Origin: an uncultured Bacteroidales bacterium
GTDB lineage: Bacteria; Bacteroidota; Bacteroidia; Bacteroidales; UBA10428
Reading direction: 5' to 3'
DNA: 46,114 nucleotides
Assembly (NCBI GenBank): GCA_964438935.1
Contig: CAYTNC010000002.1
Location: 1-46,114 of the forward strand
Of the stretch, positions 4,952 to 20,458 are shown piece by piece. The translations under genes and the position numbers were made by a program. The notes under the pieces are model-generated. The model saw only the letters and a program-made list of their open reading frames with translations. It did no database searches and had not been told where the DNA came from. Positions within the stretch are counted from its first letter, which is position 1. Each line of letters starts with the position of its first letter.

Positions 4952-4969
4952 CACTAAGCACATCAGGAT

Positions 4970-5152
4970 ATGGCAAAGAAAGGTAATAGAATACAGGTGA
5001 TTCTTGAGTGCACCGAACACAAAACAAGTGGTTTACCCGGTATGTCGAGGTACATTACCACCAAGAACAGGAAGAATACTCCTGACCGAATTGAGCTGAA
5101 AAAGTACAATCCGACACTCAAAAAAGTAACTGTTCACAAAGAAATCAAGTAG
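4970..5152 (+). CDS. rpmG: 50S ribosomal protein L33
   Basis: 60 aa, [18 protein letters not shown]...[21 protein letters not shown], the L33 pattern. Confidence 0.93.
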
Positions 5153-6504: not shown

Positions 6505-7950
6505 ATGGATTTATTCAGGACAAAACCCATCAGTCAGTTGTTGGCTGAAGCCGATGACAAGGAGCATGGCTTGAAGAAAGCACTGGGAGGTACCAGCCTG
6601 GTCTTACTGGGTATTGGTGCCATCATCGGCACCGGCATATTTGTGCTTACCGGTACTGTGGCAGCCAATTATGCCGGCCCTGCACTTGTGCTTTCATTCC
6701 TCATTTCTGCCTTGGGTTGTGTTTTTGCCGGCCTTTGTTATGCCGAGTTTGCCTCAATGATACCCATATCGGGGAGTGCCTATACCTATTCCTATGCCAC
6801 GCTGGGTGAGTTTGTTGCCTGGATTATTGGCTGGGACCTGATTCTGGAGTATCTTTTTGCCTCATCCACTGTTGCTGTGGGTTGGTCGGGTTACATGGTC
6901 AGCTTCCTGAACGATTATGGGGTTCATATTCCGGCCGCATTATGCAATGCCCCCATTGATCACATCAAAGGGCAGGGCTGGATACTTACCGGAAGCATCA
7001 TCAACTTTCCTGCCGTGTTTATCATTGCACTGCTTTCTATACTGCTGGTGATTGGTATTAAAGAATCAGCCGGTTTCAACAACATCATTGTAGTAATTAA
7101 AGTGATTGTAATCCTGCTTTTCATCGGATTCGGACTTTCCTATATCGACACTTCCAATTGGAAACCTTTTATTCCGCCAAATACCACAGGTGAATTCGGA
7201 AATTTTGGCATCACGGGCGTACTTCGGGGTGCAGCTGTCATTTTCTTTGCCTATATCGGATTTGATGCTGTTTCTACGGCCGCGCAGGAAGCTAAAAATC
7301 CACAGCGCGATATGCCTATTGGTATTCTGGGATCATTGCTGGTATGTACCATCCTATATGTATTGGTTTCTGCAGTGTTAACCGGGATTGAGCATTACTC
7401 CAATCTGAACGTACCTGCTCCGCTGGCACTGGCAATAGACAAAACCGGAGAAGCATTGAAATGGCTGCGACCTTTAATTAAATTGGGCGCAATAGCCGGA
7501 CTGAGTTCGGTAGTTTTGGTGATGCTCATGGGTCAGCCCCGTATTTTCTTTACCATGGCCAATGACGGGTTGCTGCCTAAAAGCTTTTCTAAAGTGCATC
7601 CCCGCTTCAGAACTCCTTATGTTACCACCATAGTTACCGGCATTGTGGCCTGTTTTGTTGCGGGTTTACTGCCCATCAACATCCTGAGCGAATTGGTTTC
7701 AATTGGTACATTGCTGGCCTTCACCATTGTTTGCATTAGTGTCATCATACTCCGAAAGAAAAGACCAGATGTGGTGAGACCGTTCAAAACGCCCTGGGTA
7801 CCATGGATTCCGCTTGCAGGAGCAACTGTATGCCTGTTACAGATGTTCAGCCTTCCATGGGAAACCTGGGAACGATTGCTGATTTGGATGGCTGCCGGCT
7901 TGCTGATTTATTTCCTGTACAGCCGGAAAAGGAGCAAACTGGCCAGGTGA
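6505..7950 (+). CDS. APC-superfamily amino acid permease (cationic amino acid transporter-like)
   Basis: 481 aa, about 12 or more hydrophobic helices. The N-terminal KKALGGTSLVLLGIGAIIGTGIF motif is typical of APC transporters. Confidence 0.85.
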   Translation: MDLFRTKPISQLLAEADDKEHGLKKALGGTSLVLLGIGAIIGTGIFVLTGTVAANYAGPALVLSFLISALGCVFAGLCYAEFASMIPISGSAYTYSYATLGEFVAWIIGWDLILEYLFASSTVAVGWSGYMVSFLNDYGVHIPAALCNAPIDHIKGQGWILTGSIINFPAVFIIALLSILLVIGIKESAGFNNIIVVIKVIVILLFIGFGLSYIDTSNWKPFIPPNTTGEFGNFGITGVLRGAAVIFFAYIGFDAVSTAAQEAKNPQRDMPIGILGSLLVCTILYVLVSAVLTGIEHYSNLNVPAPLALAIDKTGEALKWLRPLIKLGAIAGLSSVVLVMLMGQPRIFFTMANDGLLPKSFSKVHPRFRTPYVTTIVTGIVACFVAGLLPINILSELVSIGTLLAFTIVCISVIILRKKRPDVVRPFKTPWVPWIPLAGATVCLLQMFSLPWETWERLLIWMAAGLLIYFLYSRKRSKLAR

Positions 7951-9274: not shown

Positions 9275-11838
9275 GCTTCGTCTGCCTCACTCAGCGCAGC
9301 ATCAGTAGCTTCCTCTGCGTGAAGCACTTTCATGGTAACTTCTTCCTTCTTTTTGCTAAATCCGATGACTATGGTATCACCTTCCTTCATGTTTGATTTG
9401 ATAATTATCTCAGCCATAGGATCTTCCAGGTATTTCTGAATGGCACGCTTCAGGGGCCTGGCACCAAACTGAATGTCATAGCCTTTTTCAGCAATGTAAT
9501 CCTTTGCTACGTCTGACATTTTCAACTGGTACCCCATGGCAATAATTCTTGCATAAAGGCCTTTGAGCTCAATGTCGATGATCTTGTGTATGTCTTGCTG
9601 AGTGAGCGTGTTGAAAATAACCACATCGTCAATACGGTTGAGGAATTCAGGTGAAAATGCCTTTTTCAGAGCATTCTGAATTACGCTTTTGGCGTATTCA
9701 TTGGTAGTTTCCTGTTTTGTCTTGGTGGTGAAACCCACACCCTGACCGAAGTCCTTGAGCTGACGGGTTCCAATGTTAGAGGTCATGATCACAATGGTAT
9801 TCCGGAAGTCGACCCGGCGCCCCAGGCTGTCGGTCAGCTGACCTTCATCAAGCACCTGCAGCAGAATATTATAAACATCCGGATGTGCTTTTTCAATTTC
9901 GTCGAGGAGTACAACACTGTAGGGACGCCTGCGAACCTTTTCCGTAAGCTGTCCGCCTTCTTCATAACCAATATAGCCCGGAGGAGCTCCAACCAGACGC
10001 GAAACCGAGAATTTCTCCATGTATTCGCTCATGTCAATGCGGATCAGGTTGTTGAATGAATCAAAAAGATATTGAGCCAGCACCTTGGCAAGCTGGGTTT
10101 TTCCAACTCCGGTAGGCCCTAAAAAGATAAAAGTACCAATGGGTTTATTCGGGTCTTTCAGTCCGGCACGGTTGCGTTGTATTGATTTCACCACCTTTTC
10201 AATGGCTTCGTCCTGTCCGATCACGCTACCCTTCAGTTCATCGCCCATTTTCAGCAGGCGCTGTCCTTCTTCCAGGGCGATTCGCTGAACGGGAACACCG
10301 GTCATCATAGCAACCACTTCGGCTACTTTCTCGGCATCTACAACCTGACGGTTTCGCGTCAATTCCTTTTCCCACTTCAGCTTTTCATCTTCCAGCCCTT
10401 CCAGGAACTCTTTTTCCTTGTCCCTGAAGCTGGCTGCCTTTTCAAAGTTTTGATTTTTAACGGCTTTGATCTTCTCTTTCTTGGTTTCTTCAATTTTCTT
10501 CTCGAGTTCAATGATCATCTCGGGCACATGTATGTTGGAAATGTGTACCCTGGAACCTGATTCATCCAGCGCGTCAATAGCCTTATCGGGCAGGTGCCTG
10601 TCGGAAATATACCTGTTGGTGAGCTTTACACATGCGTCAATGGCTTCGGGCGTGTAAATCACGTTGTGGTGGTCTTCATATCGTTCCTTGATATTATTTA
10701 GAATTTCCACCGTTTCTTCGGGCGAGGTGGGTTCCACCATAACCTTCTGGAACCTGCGCTCCAGGGCGCCGTCTTTTTCTATTTGCTGCCTGTATTCGTC
10801 AAGCGTTGTGGCTCCAATACATTGAATGTCACCACGGGCGAGGGCAGGTTTCAGCATATTGGCTGCGTCAAGTGAACCAGTGGCACCACCGGCACCAACA
10901 ATGGTATGAATTTCATCAATAAACAGCACAACATTTGATGTCTTAGCAAGCTCATTCAGTATGGCCTTCATACGTTCCTCAAACTGACCGCGGTACTTGG
11001 TTCCGGCAACAATGGCAGCCAGGTCAAGCGTTACAACGCGCTTGCCGAAAAGTACACGGGAAACCTTTTTCTGAATAATCCTTAAAGCAAGGCCTTCCAC
11101 GATGGCAGATTTTCCCACTCCGGGCTCTCCAATGAGGATGGGATTGTTTTTCTTACGTCTGCTGAGGATTTGAGCAAGCCTTTCGATTTCCTTCTCACGT
11201 CCCACAATGGGGTCGAGCCGGTCTTCCTCTGCGGCTTTGGTAAGATCGACACCGAAATTATCGAGTACCGGAGTTTCAGAATTTGATTTGGGGCCTGGTT
11301 CCGGGTTGGATCCTTTGCCGCCCTGCGGTCCGAATGATCCCATGGATTCATCTTCTTCGTGCGGGTAATCAGCACGGGGCTCATGGTCCTCATTCTCGGC
11401 CATATGCTCATTGAGCAATTCCTTTCTTACCTTTTCATAATCAATATTGTGTTCCAGCATGATCCTTGAAACAGGGGCGCTTTCATCCTTAAGAATGGCC
11501 AGCAACAGGTGCCCGGTGTCGATGGTACTTTTCTTAAGCGATTTGGCTTCCAGGTAAACAAGCTTTAGGATACGCTCCGAAGTTTTCAACAGCGGCACAT
11601 TATCTGTATCTGTAACTTTTATCGGACCGGCAGAGGCAATGATACCCTCAATATCTTTTTTAAGCTGATAAAGATTAGCGCCCAGCGAAACGAGAATGTC
11701 AATGGCCACACCTTCGCCTTCACGCAAAATGCCCAGCAACATGTGTTCCGGAGCTATTTCGTTGTTTCCCAGCCTTATGGCCTCTTCTTTACTAAAGGTA
11801 AGTACATCTTTAATTCTTTGTGAGAACTTCGCATCCAT
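9271..11838 (-). CDS. clpC: ATP-dependent Clp protease ATP-binding subunit (ClpC-type class I AAA+)
   Basis: 855 aa with Clp N-repeats (EHMLLGILREGEGVAIDIL), two P-loops (GEPGVGKSA and GPTGVGKTQ) and a UVR-like linker (NQNFEKAASFRDKEKE). Confidence 0.9.
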   Translation of the reverse strand: MDAKFSQRIKDVLTFSKEEAIRLGNNEIAPEHMLLGILREGEGVAIDILVSLGANLYQLKKDIEGIIASAGPIKVTDTDNVPLLKTSERILKLVYLEAKSLKKSTIDTGHLLLAILKDESAPVSRIMLEHNIDYEKVRKELLNEHMAENEDHEPRADYPHEEDESMGSFGPQGGKGSNPEPGPKSNSETPVLDNFGVDLTKAAEEDRLDPIVGREKEIERLAQILSRRKKNNPILIGEPGVGKSAIVEGLALRIIQKKVSRVLFGKRVVTLDLAAIVAGTKYRGQFEERMKAILNELAKTSNVVLFIDEIHTIVGAGGATGSLDAANMLKPALARGDIQCIGATTLDEYRQQIEKDGALERRFQKVMVEPTSPEETVEILNNIKERYEDHHNVIYTPEAIDACVKLTNRYISDRHLPDKAIDALDESGSRVHISNIHVPEMIIELEKKIEETKKEKIKAVKNQNFEKAASFRDKEKEFLEGLEDEKLKWEKELTRNRQVVDAEKVAEVVAMMTGVPVQRIALEEGQRLLKMGDELKGSVIGQDEAIEKVVKSIQRNRAGLKDPNKPIGTFIFLGPTGVGKTQLAKVLAQYLFDSFNNLIRIDMSEYMEKFSVSRLVGAPPGYIGYEEGGQLTEKVRRRPYSVVLLDEIEKAHPDVYNILLQVLDEGQLTDSLGRRVDFRNTIVIMTSNIGTRQLKDFGQGVGFTTKTKQETTNEYAKSVIQNALKKAFSPEFLNRIDDVVIFNTLTQQDIHKIIDIELKGLYARIIAMGYQLKMSDVAKDYIAEKGYDIQFGARPLKRAIQKYLEDPMAEIIIKSNMKEGDTIVIGFSKKKEEVTMKVLHAEEATDAALSEADEA

Positions 11839-12037: not shown

Positions 12038-14542
12038 ATGGCTGAAGGAGAAAAGATTATACCGATAAATATTGAGGAGGAGATGAAGTCGGCCTACATT
12101 GATTATTCAATGTCGGTTATTGTTTCACGTGCTTTGCCCGATGTGAGAGACGGATTGAAACCTGTGCACCGCAGGGTACTTTTTGGAATGCAGGATTTGG
12201 GCGTGTTCTCCAATCGTCCCTATAAGAAATCGGCCCGTATTGTCGGGGAAGTTTTGGGTAAATACCATCCCCATGGTGATTTATCGGTTTACGATGCCAT
12301 GGTGAGAATGGCCCAGGATTGGTCGCTCCGCTACCCGCTGGTGGAAGGGCAGGGTAACTTTGGGTCCATGGACGGCGACAGTCCCGCCGCCATGAGGTAT
12401 ACCGAAGCCAGGCTCAGAAAGGTGGCTGAGGAAATGCTTGCCGATATTGACAAAAATACGGTTGATTTCCAGCTGAACTTTGACGACACATTGCAGGAGC
12501 CTACCGTTTTGCCATCAAAAATTCCCCAACTGCTTGTTAACGGTGCTTCCGGTATTGCCGTGGGTATGGCCACCAACATGCCTCCCCACAACCTGAAGGA
12601 GATTTGCAGGGCAGTCATCGCCTATATTGACAACCATGAGATTACCGTGGAGGAATTGATGACTCACGTGAAAGGTCCGGATTTTCCTACCGGAGGTATA
12701 ATTTATGGGTTGCAAGGTATTAAAGAGGCTTTTGAAACCGGCAGGGGACGTATTGTTATGCGGGCCCGAACCGAGGTTGAAATAACATCCAGCGGACGTG
12801 AGGTAATTGTTATAAAAGAGGTGCCTTACCAGGTGAACAAGGCCGAAATGATCCGTAAAATCGCTGAGCTGATCAACGAAAAGAAACTAGAGGGCATCTC
12901 CTATATTAATGATGAATCTGACCGGAATGGGATCCGGGTGGTGATCATCTGTAAGAAGGAAGCACAGGCCAGCATTGTACTGAATAACCTGTACAAGCAA
13001 ACGCAGATGCAGACCGCCTTCAATGTGAACAACATAGCCCTTGTTCACGGAAGGCCCAAGATGCTGAACCTGTATCAATGCATCCGCTATTTTGTGGAGC
13101 ATCGCCATGATGTGGTGATCCGCAGAACCAAATACGACCTGGATGAATCTGAGAAGAAAGCGCACATTCTTGAGGGTTTGCTGATTGCTTTAGACAACCT
13201 GGATGCAGTGATCAAACTCATCAGGGCTTCCAAAAACCCTGATGAAGCTAAAGACGGTCTGGTTTCCACCTTTAACCTCTCCGAAGCACAGGCCAAAGCC
13301 ATTTTGGAAATGCGGTTGCAAAGGCTGACCGGCCTGGAGCGCGACAAAATCAGGCTGGAATATGAAGAACTGCTCAAAATCATTGCTTATTTAAAAAGCC
13401 TGCTTGAAAGTGAACCCATGCGCATGCAGGTTATCAAAGACGAGCTTGCGGAAGTGATGGAAAGTTTCGGCGATGAACGACGTACCACCATTGTTCCCGA
13501 TGCAGGCGAATTCAACCCCGAAGATTTCTATGCTGATGACGACATGATCATCACCATCTCACGCCTGGGATACATCAAACGCACACCGCTGAGTGAATTC
13601 AGAACGCAGGCGAGGGGAGGAAAAGGTTCTAAAGGTTCAGAAACCAGGGATGAGGATTACCTCGAACACATGTACCACGCCACCATGCACAATACCATGT
13701 TGTTTTTCACTGAAAAAGGAAGGTGCTTCTGGTTGAAGGTTTATGAAATTCCCGAAGGAACAAAAACATCCAAGGGCAGGGCCATCCAAAACCTGCTTAG
13801 CATTGAGCAAGGAGACATGGTAAAGGCATTCATCAATGTCAAGAGTCTGGTTGATGAAGATTACATTAAAAATAACTTCATCGTGCTCTGTACGCTGAAA
13901 GGTATCATAAAGAAAACTTCGCTCGAAGCTTATTCACGACCCCGGCAAAACGGTATAAATGCCATTAACATCAGGGAAGGCGACAGTTTGCTGGAGGCCC
14001 GGCTGACCAGTGGCGACAGTGAAATTCTCATTGCCACCCGCTCCGGTAAAGCCATCAGGTTCTCCGAGAAGAAAGTAAGGCCTATGGGCAGAACAGCATC
14101 AGGAGTAACTGGAGTCAGGTTCGACGATAAGAAAGATGTAGCCATCGGCATGGTTTGCATTGACGATCCGACCAGATCAATCCTGGTTGTATCCGAGAAT
14201 GGTTACGGAAAACGTACCGAGCTGGAAGATTACCGGGTGACCAACAGGGGCGGAAAGGGTGTTAAAACCATCAACGTTACCGACAAAACCGGACAGCTGA
14301 TTGCCATCAAATCGGTAACTGACACGGATGACATCATGATCATCAACAAATCAGGACTCACCATTCGACTTGCAGTGGCCAACCTCAGACTTATGGGAAG
14401 GGCTACACAGGGAGTCAGACTGATCAACATCCGCAGCGGCGATTCAATTGCTGCCGTAACCGATGTGGTTGGTTCTGCAGAAGAAGGTGAAGAAAAAGGA
14501 ATAGAAGAGGGCAGTGTGGAAAATGACAATTTAACTGCTTAA
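12038..14542 (+). CDS. gyrA: DNA gyrase subunit A
   Basis: 834 aa with [21 protein letters not shown], an active-site Tyr context of [10 protein letters not shown], and C-terminal beta-pinwheel repeats. Confidence 0.96.
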
Positions 14543-14579
14543 TATTCTGAGTAATTTTGGACAATTTCCAAATTGAAAT

Positions 14580-14587
14580 TATATTTG
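14580..14587 (+). promoter_or_regulatory. candidate -7 promoter box TATATTTG (a second box, TAATTTTG, at 14552..14559)
   Basis: Both match TAnnTTTG. They lie 60 and 88 nt upstream of the ATG at 14648. Confidence 0.35.
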
Positions 14588-14647
14588 GCAGACTTTTTGA
14601 TATTTACCCAATACAGAGTTTAACTTAACAAATTAAAAACAAATAAA

Positions 14648-15958
14648 ATGAAGCGTATCAGTTTGTTTCTTATTTCGATGTTTCTTTATGCAGGAGTAAA
14701 CCTGAATGCACAGGCACCGGTTGAATCTGCACCCGTATTAAATTATACAGGGCTTCAGAAGAAAATTGAAAAATCGAATGCAGATATCCAGAATGCAAAA
14801 AAGAATACCAAGGCCAAAACATGGACTTCCCGGGCACAGGTATTTCTGGATGTTTTTAATGTGCACAACGACCTGTTAAGCAGGGGTATGGCACCGGAAG
14901 CTGCCAAGCTTTTCCTGAAGGAACCCAAGGAAATCAAGACTTACAAGGATGGTAGTGACCAAATGGAAGCCTACATATACGACCGCGTTAACCTTATTTT
15001 CAGAAATGGCAAACTCGATGAGTGGCTTGAGACCGATAAAATTCATCCTGATCCTCTTTCCGAAGCAAAAAAGGCACTTGATGAGGCCATCAAGCTGAAT
15101 ACTGACTCTAAAGCCGATGCCGATATCAAATCGGTTATTGAAGCGGTTAAGAATGCTTACCAAATTGTAGCTGTTAATGCTTATGAAAAAGGTGACTTCG
15201 ACAAATCCCAAAAGAATTTTGTAAACATGGTTGATCTGAACAGGCTGCCAATAATGAAAGGCAGGATAGATACCATTATAACATATTTCGCTGGTCGTGC
15301 TGCATTTGAGAATAAGGATTATGCTACAGCCAACAAGCTGCTTGAGGAAGTTGCCTCATATAACTTTAAAGATCCGCTGCTTTATGTATTCCGCAAGCAG
15401 GCCCTGTTTGCCTCTGGAGATACGGCAAAGGGAGTAGAAGTGATTCGCGAAGGCTTTACTAAATTTCCTGAAGACCAGCCAATTATGATTGAAATGATCA
15501 ACTATTACATTGATTCAAAGCAGGTTCCTCTGGCCCTTGAACTGATCAACAAAGCCAAAGAAGGTGATCCCGAAAATATTTCGTACTATTTCACTGAAGG
15601 TACACTGTATGAAAAGCTTGATCGCAGGGAGGAAGCTGAAAAGGCCTATATGACTTGTCTTGAAAAGAATCCGGATTTCTTTAGCGCCAATTACAACCTG
15701 GCTGTATTGCATTACAACAATGCTGTAAAAATATATGAAGAAGCCTCCAAAATTATGAACAATGCTGAATTTGAGAAGAAGCAAAAAGAAGCAGATGATG
15801 TTTTGAAGAAAATGATTCCTTATATGGAAAAAGCCAGCACAACTAGTAATGATCCCGAAGACAAGAAAAGTGCCTTGGAATCTTTAAAACAGGTTTACTA
15901 TCGTTTAAAAATGGAAAGTGAACGTGAAAATGTAATCAAACGTCTTGGCGAACTTTAA
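14648..15958 (+). CDS. secreted tetratricopeptide-repeat protein
   Basis: 436 aa with the signal peptide MKRISLFLISMFLYAGVNLNAQA and repeated A..Y...L TPR-like helices. Confidence 0.75.
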   Translation: MKRISLFLISMFLYAGVNLNAQAPVESAPVLNYTGLQKKIEKSNADIQNAKKNTKAKTWTSRAQVFLDVFNVHNDLLSRGMAPEAAKLFLKEPKEIKTYKDGSDQMEAYIYDRVNLIFRNGKLDEWLETDKIHPDPLSEAKKALDEAIKLNTDSKADADIKSVIEAVKNAYQIVAVNAYEKGDFDKSQKNFVNMVDLNRLPIMKGRIDTIITYFAGRAAFENKDYATANKLLEEVASYNFKDPLLYVFRKQALFASGDTAKGVEVIREGFTKFPEDQPIMIEMINYYIDSKQVPLALELINKAKEGDPENISYYFTEGTLYEKLDRREEAEKAYMTCLEKNPDFFSANYNLAVLHYNNAVKIYEEASKIMNNAEFEKKQKEADDVLKKMIPYMEKASTTSNDPEDKKSALESLKQVYYRLKMESERENVIKRLGEL

Positions 15959-15970
15959 TAACATAAAAAA

Positions 15971-15999
15971 GGGAAGCGATTTCGTTTCCCTTTTTCTTT
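15971..15999 (+). terminator. intrinsic terminator after the TPR gene
   Basis: GGGAAGCG-ATTT-CGTTTCCC (8-bp stem with one G-T pair) followed by TTTTTCTTT. Confidence 0.75.
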
Positions 16000-16038
16000 A
16001 ATATTTCTATTTAACATAATATTAATTATAGGACATTC

Positions 16039-16358
16039 GAAACAGAAAACTTTGCCGCAGAAAATCTGCGTGTAGCCGGTTAACGACGCGCTAGCGGAGT
16101 TCACCGGATACTTAACATAAAATCAGATATCGGATTGAGGCTTTGCCTCAGTTCGATATCGGCAGATTTTATGTTAAAGCAAATTTTCTGTTTCCAGCAT
16201 TTCATTGTATCTGCCAGCGCAGTCCGATGTAAGGCATACGCGTCAGCTTAAGGATAATTATTAAGCACTCCGCGATTAAAACCGAATTCATTTTTCACCG
16301 TCAAGCTTAGTTTAGCTGCGCTGAGCTCCTTTCGGTCGGTTGCAACTAAGTTTTTTTT
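16039..16358 (+). ncRNA. candidate structured RNA of unknown family: a four-way junction domain, a second domain and an intrinsic terminator
   Basis: Hand folding gives four helices. P1 pairs 16039-16053 with 16181-16194. P2 is 16056-16070 (CGCAGA-AAA-TCTGCG). P3 is 16076-16107. P4 is 16111-16179 (about 30 bp). A hairpin at 16306-16350 is followed by T8 at 16351-16358. The G-T pairs and the T-run fit only the + strand. No ORF of 60 aa or more supports coding here. Confidence 0.4.
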
Positions 16359-16399
16359 ATTCATAGTTTGTAACTACATCCCCGTTCCCCTTTCGAAAA

Positions 16400-16483
16400 C
16401 CGCATCAATCCCCTACTCCGCTTTATCAGGCAAGGACTCAGGAGGAGCCAGATGTGTATATAATGCCGCTCCAATCCCCTACT
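16400..16483. repeat. 18-nt direct repeat CCGC(AT/TC)CAATCCCCTACT, two copies
   Basis: The copies at 16400..16417 and 16466..16483 are identical at 16 of 18 positions, 66 nt apart, in the ORF-free spacer upstream of the hydrolase gene. Confidence 0.6.
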
Positions 16484-16592
16484 ATAAAAATCTCTTTGAT
16501 ATTGGTAATTATCCCAAAGAATCTCGGTGCAATTGCAACCTTTCAGTGCTAACTTTATTAGCACTAATCCTTTATCCTAAAATTGTGTGCAG

Positions 16593-17183
16593 ATGAAAAC
16601 GCTGAGAATTCTCCTGCTTTTAATCACCACAGGCAGTTCACTGCAATTGGCATCGCAGGTAAACCCGGTTGGCATCGATTTAAGAAGTAATGGTGTTAAA
16701 CTGGATGCAAAATTCTATGCTGCCGACAAAATTCAGGCAGCACCAACCATGATCCTGTTACATGGATATCCTGGTAACGCCAATAGTCCCTATGATTTTG
16801 TTGAAATACTGAACAAAAAGGGGATGCATATCCTGGTTTTTAATTATGAGGGAAGTTTCAAGAGCGAAGGTGCTTTCAGTTGGGAAAATTGTATGACTGA
16901 TGTGGGTGCCGCAATCTCCTTCCTTAAGCAAAAGCATAACATGCAACAATTGTCAATCGATACTTCCCGGATTATAGTCTGTGGTTTTAATCAGGGTGCT
17001 GCGATTGCTTTGTCAGCATCAGCTCATAATTGTGCCATCAAAAGAATTATAGCAGTCGCAGGAGGAAATGACCTCATGGATAAAAGACCTATAAAGCGCC
17101 ATAACAAAGGTTATTCGTCACGCCATTTCTTTGTCAGAAATACCATAATTAATTGTCTCATAGGAGAAAATTGTATGTTTTAG
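16593..17183 (+). CDS. alpha/beta-hydrolase-fold protein, probably inactive and C-terminally truncated (possible pseudogene)
   Basis: It has a signal peptide (MKTLRILLLLITTGSSLQLASQ) and an LLHGYPG oxyanion-type motif. The nucleophile elbow reads GFNQG (Asn where G-x-S-x-G needs Ser). The ORF ends about 35 aa later with no recognisable Asp/His triad region. I prefer the ATG at 16593 to the track's GTG at 16587. Confidence 0.6.
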   Translation: MKTLRILLLLITTGSSLQLASQVNPVGIDLRSNGVKLDAKFYAADKIQAAPTMILLHGYPGNANSPYDFVEILNKKGMHILVFNYEGSFKSEGAFSWENCMTDVGAAISFLKQKHNMQQLSIDTSRIIVCGFNQGAAIALSASAHNCAIKRIIAVAGGNDLMDKRPIKRHNKGYSSRHFFVRNTIINCLIGENCMF

Positions 17184-17252
17184 GTTAATATTGTGAATTC
17201 CTGTGCAGAAAAAGGGAAAGAACAGAACATTGAACGCATAATTTCAACTGAA

Positions 17253-17888
17253 ATGGAATACATCAATCTGGAAAAATGGAAGAGAAAAGAACATTACGAA
17301 TTCTTCCACAGTATGGATTATCCACAATACAATATTTGTATGGACATTGATGTCACTCATTTTTTGACGTATACCAGAAAAAAGGAACTGTCGTTTTACT
17401 ATTCAATGATTTATGCTGCCACCACGGTGATTAACCGTGTTGAAAACTTCAGATACCGGATACAGGATGATCAGGTAGTTTTACACAACAAATTACATCC
17501 TTCGTTTACTGATATGAACCGGGATCCGGAAGATGATTTGTTCAAAATGGTGACTGTTGACCTGACAGACAAAATTGATGATTTTGTAAAAATTGCCGGG
17601 CAAACCAATGAAAATCAAAAGGATTTTCTGGTACCGGAAAAATTAATCGAAAGAGATGATTTGATCTATATTACCTGTATCCCATGGATTTCTTTTACGC
17701 ATGTTTCTCATACCTTTTCACTGAATAGAAACGACTCAGTTCCCCGGATTTCCTGGGGAAAATATTACAAGCAAGGTGAGAGGATGTTACTGCCTTTTTC
17801 AGTGCAGGCGAATCATGCATTAGTCGACGGATATCATGTTGGAAAGTATGTTCAGCAATTGCAAACCTTTCTTGATGAAATTCAATAG
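17253..17888 (+). CDS. type A chloramphenicol O-acetyltransferase family protein
   Basis: MEYINLEKWKRKEHYEFF aligns with the classic CAT N-terminus (W.RKEHF..F). The C-terminus has NHALVDGYHVGKY, corresponding to the catalytic HHAVCDGFH region. I moved the start from the track's GTG at 17193 to the ATG at 17253. Confidence 0.8.
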   Translation: MEYINLEKWKRKEHYEFFHSMDYPQYNICMDIDVTHFLTYTRKKELSFYYSMIYAATTVINRVENFRYRIQDDQVVLHNKLHPSFTDMNRDPEDDLFKMVTVDLTDKIDDFVKIAGQTNENQKDFLVPEKLIERDDLIYITCIPWISFTHVSHTFSLNRNDSVPRISWGKYYKQGERMLLPFSVQANHALVDGYHVGKYVQQLQTFLDEIQ

Positions 17889-18130
17889 GCCGGTCACTAT
17901 TGACCATAGTGTTGATTATTTACCCAAAGAATTTGAAAAACTGGGTGATTCAATTTTTATCAATACAAGTATACAGGCTATTTTATTTATCTGTTTTCAG
18001 CCAGATTTTTAACAAAAAACAACATAACATTATCATTTCATTAACGCGGACTTGAAATAATTTGGCATATTTTCGGTAATTCTATCTTAAAATATTAACT
18101 GTCCTTCTATTAATAAAAACATCAAAACTT

Positions 18131-18844
18131 ATGAAAAAACCCAGGACTATTGTATTGGCATTTCTATTAACTATTTTATGCAATGTGTATTCACAGAATG
18201 AAGGTGTTAGAATAGGTATCGTAGGAGAAAAATTTTCAGATTTTACTTTAAAAACATACCAGGGAGGTCAGGTATCTACAGGTGAACTTCGTGGGAAAAA
18301 CATTTTGCTGATTTCTTCCAGGGGAAAATACAATGACAGCTACTGGTGTGGTATCTGCTTTTATCAGTATGCTGAACTGGCTGATCTGGAACTCACACAA
18401 AAAATCCGTGAAAAATACAACCTGGAGATTCTGTTCCTGCTGCCCTATAACAGGGATACACTTAAAAGCTGGGAGAAAAATTTCGCGGGAGGATTGGCTT
18501 ATATTGAAAAAGGTAAGAATCCGGCTGATCCGGAGAAATTATCAGATGCCCAGATAGAATGGATGAATTATACCCGCAGGCATTTTCCAAAAACGCTCTT
18601 ATATAATGACGGGAAAATACCCTTGCCATTGCCCGTTTTAATTGATGATCAGCAGCAAGTATCAAACGGATTGGATATATTGAGAACTGAGTGGGACGGT
18701 ACTAAAACGCTTCAGAATGTACCGGCAGTTTACCTCATCGATAAGGATGGTATACTCAGGTTTAAATACCTGAGTCAGTCAACAACTGACCGGCCAACGG
18801 CGGCATATATTCTGAACGTGATTGAGACCATGCTGGATAAATAA
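18131..18844 (+). CDS. secreted thioredoxin-fold (redoxin/AhpC-TSA-like) protein
   Basis: It has the signal peptide MKKPRTIVLAFLLTILCNVYSQ, a CxxC motif (WCGIC) after a beta-strand (KNILLISS), and a typical C-terminal VPAVYLIDKDGILRF. Confidence 0.7.
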   Translation: MKKPRTIVLAFLLTILCNVYSQNEGVRIGIVGEKFSDFTLKTYQGGQVSTGELRGKNILLISSRGKYNDSYWCGICFYQYAELADLELTQKIREKYNLEILFLLPYNRDTLKSWEKNFAGGLAYIEKGKNPADPEKLSDAQIEWMNYTRRHFPKTLLYNDGKIPLPLPVLIDDQQQVSNGLDILRTEWDGTKTLQNVPAVYLIDKDGILRFKYLSQSTTDRPTAAYILNVIETMLDK

Positions 18845-18996
18845 CATTCCGGCCGGAAATGCCGGCATATAAAGAAGTTCATATTCTCTGCAGGCATGAT
18901 TTCAGGTGGTATAATTCAGCATAACGAGCGTCGTCGAAGAGTCATATTATAATTATTAGTCCCTGTTTCAACTACGCCCGATAGCGTGTAAATTAT

Positions 18997-19024
18997 AAAA
19001 GCCTGACCCATGAGTCAGGCTTTT
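18997..19024. terminator. bidirectional intrinsic terminator between convergent genes
   Basis: AAAA-GCCTGAC-CCATGA-GTCAGGC-TTTT. The 7-bp GC-rich stem is flanked by an A-run and a T-run. Confidence 0.65.
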
Positions 19025-19039
19025 AATCATTTACTTTTT

Positions 19040-20458
19040 CTACTGCAACTTGGCAGCGCCAAAAAACTTAGGTGTGCGGGTCATTGTGCAGTTTGCTGAA
19101 TCGCCGGATACATCAAAAATCATAAATTCAGGAACCGCGGTTGTATAAGGGGTCCACATCCCCTCTTCCGGACCGTTTGGATTACCAAATTTTACAAAAT
19201 TGGTCCAATAATCAACAATTTTAAGACTCAACGCATCATCAGCTTTTGTAAAGGGCCTCCAGCTATGCCTTAGTGAATGAAAAACATACCATAGATCAGA
19301 TGAGTGAAAAGCACCTGTTGAGTCACCCGGAAGTTGACGTGAAAACAAATAGGCATAGGCAGGCTTGTCGCTTTCTTTTTCGCGCAACAGGCAGAAATCT
19401 GCAACAGCAGCTGTCATGTCGAACATATCATTGGCAGTAAACCCGAAAATATAAGGAATGTCGGCAATTTCATTTTTGCGTGCCAATTCACTAAACGTTC
19501 CGTTTAGGAAATAATTGTCGATAACAGGTCCCAAAGACATGCGTTTCTTAGTTGTGTCTGCATATTCCTTTGACATTTGTGTAAGTTCATCAAATGAAAG
19601 GGTACGCATATCCTTAAGCGCAGTTTTTCCATAAAAATCCATCATGGCTTTGTTGGCTAATTGGGCCGTGTCCAGGGGTACACCAGGTCTTCTGTCGCTC
19701 AATCCGCCACCACTCATGCTGATTGCCTTGCTTATGAGTCCTTTGGTTTGTGGTGAAGCACATAATGACTGAACACTCCCTGCTCCGGCACTCTGACCAA
19801 AGATTGTGATGTTATTGGGGTCGCCGCCAAACTGTACTATGTTGTTGCGAATCCATTTCAGCGCAGCAGCCTGGTCCATTAATCCATAGTTACCTGAAAC
19901 ACCATTGGGGCTTTCTTCTGAAAGCAGAGGGTGAGAAAAGAATCCCAGCACGCCCAGACGGTAAGTTACGGATACAAAGACGACACCCCTTGATGCCCAG
20001 TCTTCTCCACCATCCATTTCCGGTTCAAAACCAAAACCTTCGCGATAGCCACCACCATGTATCCACATGGCAACCGGAAGTTTTTTATTGGTTTGGCCGG
20101 ATGCAGAGGTCCATACATTCAGGTACAAACAATCTTCATCAAAAGGAACCGAACCGCTGGCGCGCCATTCCCGTCCATAAAAACTATTGGGATCCCAGGT
20201 TACCTGCATGGCAGCAGGGCCAAAAGAGTCGGCTGTCATGATGCCTTCCCAGGGAATAACCGGTTGTGGCTCTTTCCAACGCAGATCGCCTACAGGGGTT
20301 GCTGCAAAAGGAATACCTTTGTATGCAATAACTCCTTCCGTTGCGGTTTTCACTCCGGTTACCTTACCCCCCTCAATGGTGAGTACCGGATTTGAATGAT
20401 CACATGAACTCATGACCAACGCAATGAGTATTAGGTTAAAAATCAGGAATTTTTTCAT
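19040..20458 (-). CDS. type-B carboxylesterase/lipase family lipoprotein
   Basis: It has a lipoprotein signal (LIALVMSSC), EDCLYLNVW, and the signature FGGDPNNITIFGQSAGAGSV (GxSxG). Confidence 0.88.
   Translation of the reverse strand: MKKFLIFNLILIALVMSSCDHSNPVLTIEGGKVTGVKTATEGVIAYKGIPFAATPVGDLRWKEPQPVIPWEGIMTADSFGPAAMQVTWDPNSFYGREWRASGSVPFDEDCLYLNVWTSASGQTNKKLPVAMWIHGGGYREGFGFEPEMDGGEDWASRGVVFVSVTYRLGVLGFFSHPLLSEESPNGVSGNYGLMDQAAALKWIRNNIVQFGGDPNNITIFGQSAGAGSVQSLCASPQTKGLISKAISMSGGGLSDRRPGVPLDTAQLANKAMMDFYGKTALKDMRTLSFDELTQMSKEYADTTKKRMSLGPVIDNYFLNGTFSELARKNEIADIPYIFGFTANDMFDMTAAVADFCLLREKESDKPAYAYLFSRQLPGDSTGAFHSSDLWYVFHSLRHSWRPFTKADDALSLKIVDYWTNFVKFGNPNGPEEGMWTPYTTAVPEFMIFDVSGDSANCTMTRTPKFFGAAKLQ

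Follow-up and report, generated by a model that had tools for sequence, protein, structure and literature searches.

The chromosomal dif site of an uncultured Bacteroidales bacterium lies at 16009-16036 of the window (the whole stretch of 46,114 nucleotides that was analysed), and 3 nt past it begins a structured element of 156 nt, here called E, whose fold is real and conserved by covariation. On balance we favour, with some reserve, the view that E is a cis-acting module of Xer-dependent, integrase-less islands and that it acts as folded DNA. The site and its left flank comprise:

12038-14542, + strand: gyrA (Pfam DNA_topoisoIV and DNA_gyraseA_C)
14648-15958, + strand: TPR-repeat gene (Pfam TPR families), with its stop at 15958
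15966-15995, + strand: intrinsic terminator of the TPR gene, a 13-bp stem followed by a T-rich tail
16009-16036, - strand: chromosomal dif, with XerD arm 16009-16019, central region 16020-16025 and XerC arm 16026-16036
16039-16194, + strand: structured element E, with helices P1 (16039-16055/16179-16194), P2 (16056-16070), P3 (16072-16111) and P4 (16112-16177)

The chromosomal dif site

Read on the - strand, 16009-16036 gives the dif top strand ATGTCCTATAA TTAATA TTATGTTAAAT, two 11-bp arms around a 6-bp centre, and is identical at 26 of 28 positions to the dif of Robiginitalea (Bacteroidetes), itself a prediction (Kono 2011, PMC3025954 supplement). The site is intergenic and single in its own genome, even when 6 mismatches are allowed. 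Positions 16006-16035 recur with ~100% identity, again as a single copy, in about 25 genomes from the genus and from other families; in these genomes dif follows directly after the terminator of the TPR gene, and the DNA to the right of dif is unrelated from one genome to the next. The left flank formed by gyrA and the TPR gene (12038-15958) is conserved in this order, with the pairing of the TPR-gene terminator kept in relatives and its stem sequence variable, and the closed genome of a relative, G129, shows the same gyrA-TPR-dif arrangement as the window. The GC skew of the window changes from +0.039 left of dif to -0.025 right of it (Mann-Whitney p 0.002), with the cumulative maximum at 18941, the right edge of the island described below and close to dif. 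In G129, where dif is found at 1,336,479, the local skew reverses between the two 5-kb windows that flank 1,336,000, and the sampled skew places the terminus between 1.4 and 1.63 Mb. XerD (scoring above the NCBIfam cut-off) and another Xer-like recombinase are encoded in the window's own genome; tyrosine-recombinase matches number three in the whole genome and zero on the window's contig. The match at 26 of 28 positions, the uniqueness, the conservation, the skew switch, the Xer genes and the arrangement in G129 together make the identification of 16009-16036 as the chromosomal dif secure.

The gene dnaA was tried as a marker of the G129 origin and set aside as misleading: at C1:1223291-1224688 it sits 113 kb from dif, within the skew-defined terminus region near dif and away from the sampled skew origin (about 3.8 Mb).

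Fold and limits of the element

We read and folded the spacer from the TPR stop at 15958 to the next ORF at 16587. The minimum free energy fold of 16037-16197 as RNA has -80.4 kcal/mol (z -13.06), with none of 200 shuffled sequences equally stable, and the same segment folded as DNA gives z -11.0. The fold returns the pairs of the four-way junction that had been drawn by hand in the original prediction, and the statement made there that the structure matches no known RNA family agrees with a Rfam 15 covariance search over E, which gave zero matches at the gathering threshold or at E<=10.

The original prediction had carried the structure further, to a single terminator-ended RNA of about 320 nt, which does not hold: conservation is limited to 16039-16194, the middle part lacks structure and the terminator is a dispersed repeat. 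Downstream of E we distinguish:

16198-16302, no strand assigned: unstructured filler (z -0.3) with a dispersed repeat at about 16222-16269
16303-16358, + strand: REP-like, terminator-like hairpin followed by T8, a dispersed repeat (z -3.15)

The filler corresponds to the "second domain" formerly proposed, and folds at chance level on both strands (z -0.31 on +, -0.16 on -). The terminator hairpin does exist, with T8 behind it, but copies of 16303-16350 are found on contigs C112, C190 and C6 of the same genome and several times each in the related genomes G021, G022 and G016, and the hairpin has no counterpart after E in relatives. The homology of the closest relatives to the window covers 16001-16188 only (G021 92%, G022 86%, G013 79%), and since it ends near 16188, the conserved unit is dif plus about 156 nt and not 320 nt. 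The suggestion that the segment might be a MITE also fell, as a search of its own genome found E to be single-copy, and only the 3' hairpin and 16232-16269 are dispersed.

Several repeats in this region are recorded here for their own sake. The hairpin, about 46 nt long, GC-rich and with the core GCTGAGCTCC...GGTCGGTTGCAAC, has its copies in the same genome at C112:6604-6649, C190:4919-4959 and C6:42599-42630 and seems to represent a REP-like or terminator-like family. Another dispersed repeat, AGGCATACGCGTCAACTTAAGGAnAAnTATTAAGCAC (16222-16269), occurs at C79:7185-7222, C17:15611-15647, C36:16128-16160 and C190:826-846 of this genome and might be a regulatory box or a mobile-element end. About 100 nt following T8 (16364-16463) are 81-82% conserved in G021, G022 and G183, within the variable regions on the side of dif, the match in G021 consisting of one full and one shorter partial copy; the 18-nt direct repeats noted earlier on this DNA overlap this segment in part.

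Distribution and covariation

An exact 20-mer from the P4/P1 junction was found at 11 loci in species genomes, 10 of them in Bacteroidales MAGs and 1 in a genome binned as Ignavibacteria. A recognisable dif precedes E at nine of these loci, where E starts 2-25 nt after the XerC arm; the remaining two comprise one with a degenerate dif there and one that begins at a contig end. Alignment of the 11 sequences yielded a consensus three-way junction of P1, P3 and P4; P2 is an extra helix in the subgroup of the window. Among 151 genomes sampled from the order, a covariance model (R1) located E in 10 (the window's own counted), nearly all of different genera, and in a phylum-wide sample it did so in 3 of 151 genomes (again with the window's own). 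Its finds include two closed genomes from other orders of the class, where E again stands directly after dif. Within the genus, E is carried by about 6 of 25 genomes searched. Almost every E with a readable upstream region lies 2-25 nt after the XerC arm of a dif or dif-like site and in constant orientation, across three orders of Bacteroidia, the exceptions being L180, which follows another E in tandem, and L181, which begins at a contig end.

In an alignment of 26 copies, with the caveat that it was fitted to R1, 95.2% of cells are paired, and 24 of 36 pairs show changes on both sides (132 cells); none of 500 shuffles reached as high, and slid controls were about 40% paired. All three conserved helices (P1, P3 and P4) covary, and the P1 variants GCAAATTAC/GTAATTTGC and GCATATTCC/GGAATATGC are visible in the raw sequences, outside the fitted alignment.

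Tandem partial units were seen in some genomes. At L191 (G146:C16, 35751-36420), dif leads into one complete E plus about five partial units in tandem, which repeat every 91-130 nt or so. In these the P4 3' arm and the P1 3' strand are conserved and the 5' arm decays; partial tandem units occur likewise in G021, G022 and G016.

A copy of dif within P4

The original prediction, right about the structure itself, was silent on the dif 3 nt upstream of it and on the arms of P4, which copy dif. The copy in the 5' arm reads:

16110-16137, + strand: dif-like site in the P4 5' arm, oriented as dif, ACTTAACATAA, AATCAG, ATATCGGATTG

Matches to the XerD arm lie at 16111-16120 (+) and 16169-16178 (-), and at the base of P4 TTAACATAA pairs with TTATGTTAA; this sequence is the XerD arm and hardly varies within the family. 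In the 5' arm, an XerC-like stretch follows exactly 6 nt after the XerD arm, with (A/T)TAT(C/A/G)G... or TACTAAGAC where dif has TTATAGGAC. This 6-nt spacing and the near-invariant XerD arm hold across 26 homologues. In the 3' arm, a bulge of 4-6 nt makes the spacer about 10 nt long, and the upper stem is of wholly different sequence between relatives, yet paired. The neighbouring dif and its copy in the P4 arms point to a role in Xer recombination at the level of DNA, and P4 may bind the Xer proteins, whether as a decoy, as a partner or in an architectural capacity.

P4 was also considered as a site that itself recombines with dif, by XerC or XerD. The product expected of this, the XerD arm of dif joined to the remainder of the hairpin, is absent from all loci read, a point against the favoured reading. 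A derivation of the long-spacer sites described below from the P4 3' arm was rejected as well, as their spacer sequences mismatch.

The island and related cassettes

E stands at the left end of an island, which with its right flank is made up as follows:

16037-19041, no strand assigned: island of ~3 kb, bounded by the XerC arm of dif and by the conserved carboxylesterase gene of the right flank
16587-17183: truncated alpha/beta hydrolase (Pfam), island gene
17193-17888: CAT-family acetyltransferase (Pfam), island gene
18131-18844: AhpC/redoxin-like gene (Pfam), island gene
19040-20458: carboxylesterase gene, conserved right flank of the island

In the related genomes G015 and G012, both without E, the homologue of 19040-20458 is found at only 420 and 1060 nt from dif, and 16037-19041 is therefore an inserted island. 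Its GC content is 0.386, compared to 0.434 for the window. No recombinase was identified among the island genes (by Pfam), no tyrosine recombinase on the window's contig, and no recombinase in the cassettes of G129 or of the metagenome contig L055. Judged from its gene content and edges, the island of the window looks old: its hydrolase gene is truncated and no hybrid site was recognised at its right end.

Elsewhere E keeps other company. L055 has three copies of E alternating with an EcoRII restriction-modification system and four unknown ORFs, and in G129 the order is dif, E, about 0.8 kb, a 9-kb block of Dcm, Vsr and ATPase genes, a long-spacer site and a second E. A BglII restriction-modification system adjoins E in L042, and Fic-family and beta-lactamase-family genes belong to its context in G013. 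The cassette genes adjoining E can lie on either strand.

Junction sites

Where E adjoins the TPR gene, the site before it is a perfect dif whose spacer is 6 nt long. For five copies located elsewhere than at the chromosomal dif (three in L055, one in L178 and the second of G129), the preceding site instead has a spacer of 9-10 nt and the form ATTAACATAA-TGCAnnnCA-TTATAGGACA, and the copy of L174 follows a hybrid site with the centre and the XerC arm but no XerD arm. One subfamily of E is accompanied by the XerC-arm variant TTATACGACA, both beside dif and inside arrays. Hybrid long-spacer sites that may represent dif/attP flanks were found in G129, L055 and L178, and the window has no recognisable right-end site.

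In copies of the L052, L043, L048 and L055 type, an inverted dif-like site follows 90-160 nt after E, and when an L052-type locus is folded as single-stranded DNA this inverted site pairs with dif, so that a stem of ~33 bp with 1-nt bulges encloses E. The window and its genus showed no inverted second site up to 700 nt from E.

Half-sites were observed in L055 at 6674-6773 and 4952-5051 and in L189 around G129:1337452, where TCTATTTAACATAA with TATTAA or TAATAA is joined to foreign sequence; holding an XerD arm and the centre of dif, they have the form expected of products of XerC-side recombination. L055 also contains a 45-nt block, GTATGCAACACTCTTTTTGCGGAGGAACGGAGCAAAATGGGTGTG, that is 96-100% identical in the repeat units at 7162-7206, 1221-1265 and 10485-10529 and lies upstream of the long-spacer site in all three units.

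A model for island entry

From these junctions we infer that the islands enter by XerC-side recombination of dif with a site on the element whose spacer is 9-10 nt. After such an exchange the chromosome would keep its own XerD arm and centre and would gain the XerC arm of the element, followed by E, and the XerD arm and the long spacer of the element would come to lie at the distal end of the insert. This would explain both the perfect dif nearest the chromosome and the 9-10-nt-spacer sites at the five distal copies. The integration would be catalysed by the host XerC/XerD. E itself, as folded single-stranded or extruded DNA, might present its dif mimic to XerC/XerD, by analogy with attP(+) of CTXphi and attC of integrons, and could in this way help or direct a reaction that is independent of FtsK. 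Among the points against this scheme is the strand: a single-strand route on the XerC side would use the - strand, yet it is the + strand that folds slightly better.

No free form of E is known and no circular or single-stranded intermediate was seen, E being found neither in IMG/VR nor, by blastn, in PLSDB or INPHARED. A phage origin was considered and rejected: IMG/VR scans with the exact motif, the hairpin pattern and the dif sequence returned 0, 16 and 0 loci, and none of the 16 hairpin-pattern loci folds like P4 or scores better with R1 than E 0.2.

Alternative explanations

We regard it as unlikely that E is instead the gene of a small non-coding RNA, transcribed from the + strand away from dif and linked to the island, or regulating the island or Xer. 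The Rcd RNA, which is encoded inside the cer site of a plasmid, would provide a model. The compact three- or four-way junction, whose helices all show compensatory changes, would suit an RNA, and so would the strand bias. Transcription of the + strand had been implied by the original prediction, and for 16030-16365 the + strand indeed folds with -123.7 kcal/mol and z -9.6, compared to z -4.6 for the - strand. The + strand is the stabler one in 21 of 25 homologues (Wilcoxon p 4e-4, the copies being related to each other), and folds of the copies contain 45 G-U pairs on the + strand vs 27 on the - strand. The consensus pairs divide into G-T and A-C by 18 to 12, which is not significant as a strand test. 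The terminator-like hairpin after E in the window fits an RNA gene at first sight, but it is the dispersed repeat that is missing after E in relatives, and, as described above, E has no match in Rfam. Moreover, the upstream region is a dif or dif-like site without a conserved Bacteroidetes-type promoter. A reading of P1 as two Bacteroidetes -7 promoter boxes was rejected as well, since P1 covaries and in distant members its internal TTTG disappears along with this. The cassette genes beside E are found on either strand, and an RNA offers no evident reason for a near-invariant XerD arm at a fixed 6 nt from an XerC-like arm.

It seems distinctly improbable that E is a host accessory of dif, providing extra XerD/XerC sites for chromosome segregation, and not part of a mobile element. 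Analogues would be the XerD-binding sites of Bacillus and the accessory sequences by the XerC arm of cer and psi. The constant position of E next to the XerC arm, which the accessory sequences of cer and psi likewise adjoin (PMC3442271), and its two near-perfect XerD arms are in line with such a role, whereas the patchy occurrence (the 10 of 151 genomes of the order, with the window's, and about 6 of 25 of the genus), the location inside a variable island that is missing from relatives and the alternation of several copies with cassettes argue against it, and the covarying helices would not be explained by simple protein sites.

That E no longer has a function and is the decaying remnant of something like a MITE or an old phage attachment region is very improbable: the degraded look of the window's island with its truncated hydrolase and the partial tandem units in G021, G022, G016 and G146 would agree with decay, but E is single-copy per genome and so not a MITE, has no phage match and has kept its structure via many compensatory changes across three orders. 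A retron msr-msd, with P1 as a1/a2 and P4 as msd, was considered as well and rejected, no reverse transcriptase being present among the neighbours of E in the window, G129 or L055.

Relation to known systems

With E as a folded module of Xer-dependent islands, the closest known systems are the CTXphi-type IMEXs, the attC cassettes of integrons and the pdif modules of Acinetobacter. In CTXphi of Vibrio cholerae, a folded attP(+) consists of two inverted dif-like sites with a mismatched base in each arm (PMC3442271). The likeness to CTXphi-type IMEXs includes integration at dif without a recombinase of their own and junctions that fit an XerC-side exchange, dif-like sequences paired in a hairpin whose central region is asymmetric and whose arms show single-base irregularities, and arrays that accumulate beside dif. 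As to the features by which IMEXs are recognised, the window's island is inserted at dif, is absent in G015 and G012 and has no recombinase of its own. It is in L052-type loci that the attP(+) form of two inverted sites is present, and the window has just the internal P4 hairpin, whose recombination with dif would disagree with the junctions observed. In contrast to CTXphi, the islands with E have no phage or replication genes and carry cellular-type accessory or defence genes, their P4 hairpin stands within a three-way junction that adjoins the site apparently used and is not part of it, and their hosts are Bacteroidia.

With integrons the islands share promoter-less, recombinase-less cassettes that are stacked at one chromosomal site, and with attC they share a folded hairpin that has a conserved base, a variable and covarying upper stem and bulged bases on one strand; the XerD arm of E also contains a near GTTRRRY core. 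However, there is no IntI, the hairpin of E is not found at the cassette junctions, and the base of the P4 stem is fully paired over 13 bp with no unpaired central spacer. An identification of E as an integron attC was rejected, since the only tyrosine recombinases of the genome are Xer-like and E lies away from the junction predicted for attC.

The pdif modules of Acinetobacter plasmids (PMC7399989) are resembled by the modules of L052, L043 and L055, which are bounded by Xer sites of alternating orientation and contain accessory genes. Unlike these plasmid modules, E is chromosomal, located at the true dif and itself a conserved structured non-coding module, and the window has no inverted site. 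Microvirus proviruses of Bacteroidales (Alpavirinae) are integrase-less and flanked by dif-like sites (PMC3091885), and thus resemble the islands in host group, in the lack of an integrase and in their flanks; the difference is that the island with E has no capsid or Rep genes and that E was not found in IMG/VR.

Implications

A broader reading, which we put forward tentatively and hold to be possible though somewhat short of probable, is that Bacteroidia have an integron-like, Xer-driven capture of cassettes at the terminus, with recombinase-less cassettes, often of restriction-modification or other defence genes, stacked on the XerC side of dif, each with a folded three-way-junction module whose hairpin mimics dif and steers XerC/XerD. 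A limited literature search found no description of the E module or of its cassettes. The model R1 provides a searchable marker for dif and for dif islands in Bacteroidia genomes, and the reading warns against labelling E as an sRNA. If the broader reading is true, the dimer-resolution machinery of a major gut and environmental class would double as an entry for defence and accessory genes, with a structured non-coding module as the sole "mobility" part of the element. IMEX biology would then extend beyond filamentous phages and Proteobacteria, and these cassettes would represent a natural intermediate between dif/Xer and the folded attC/IntI of integrons.
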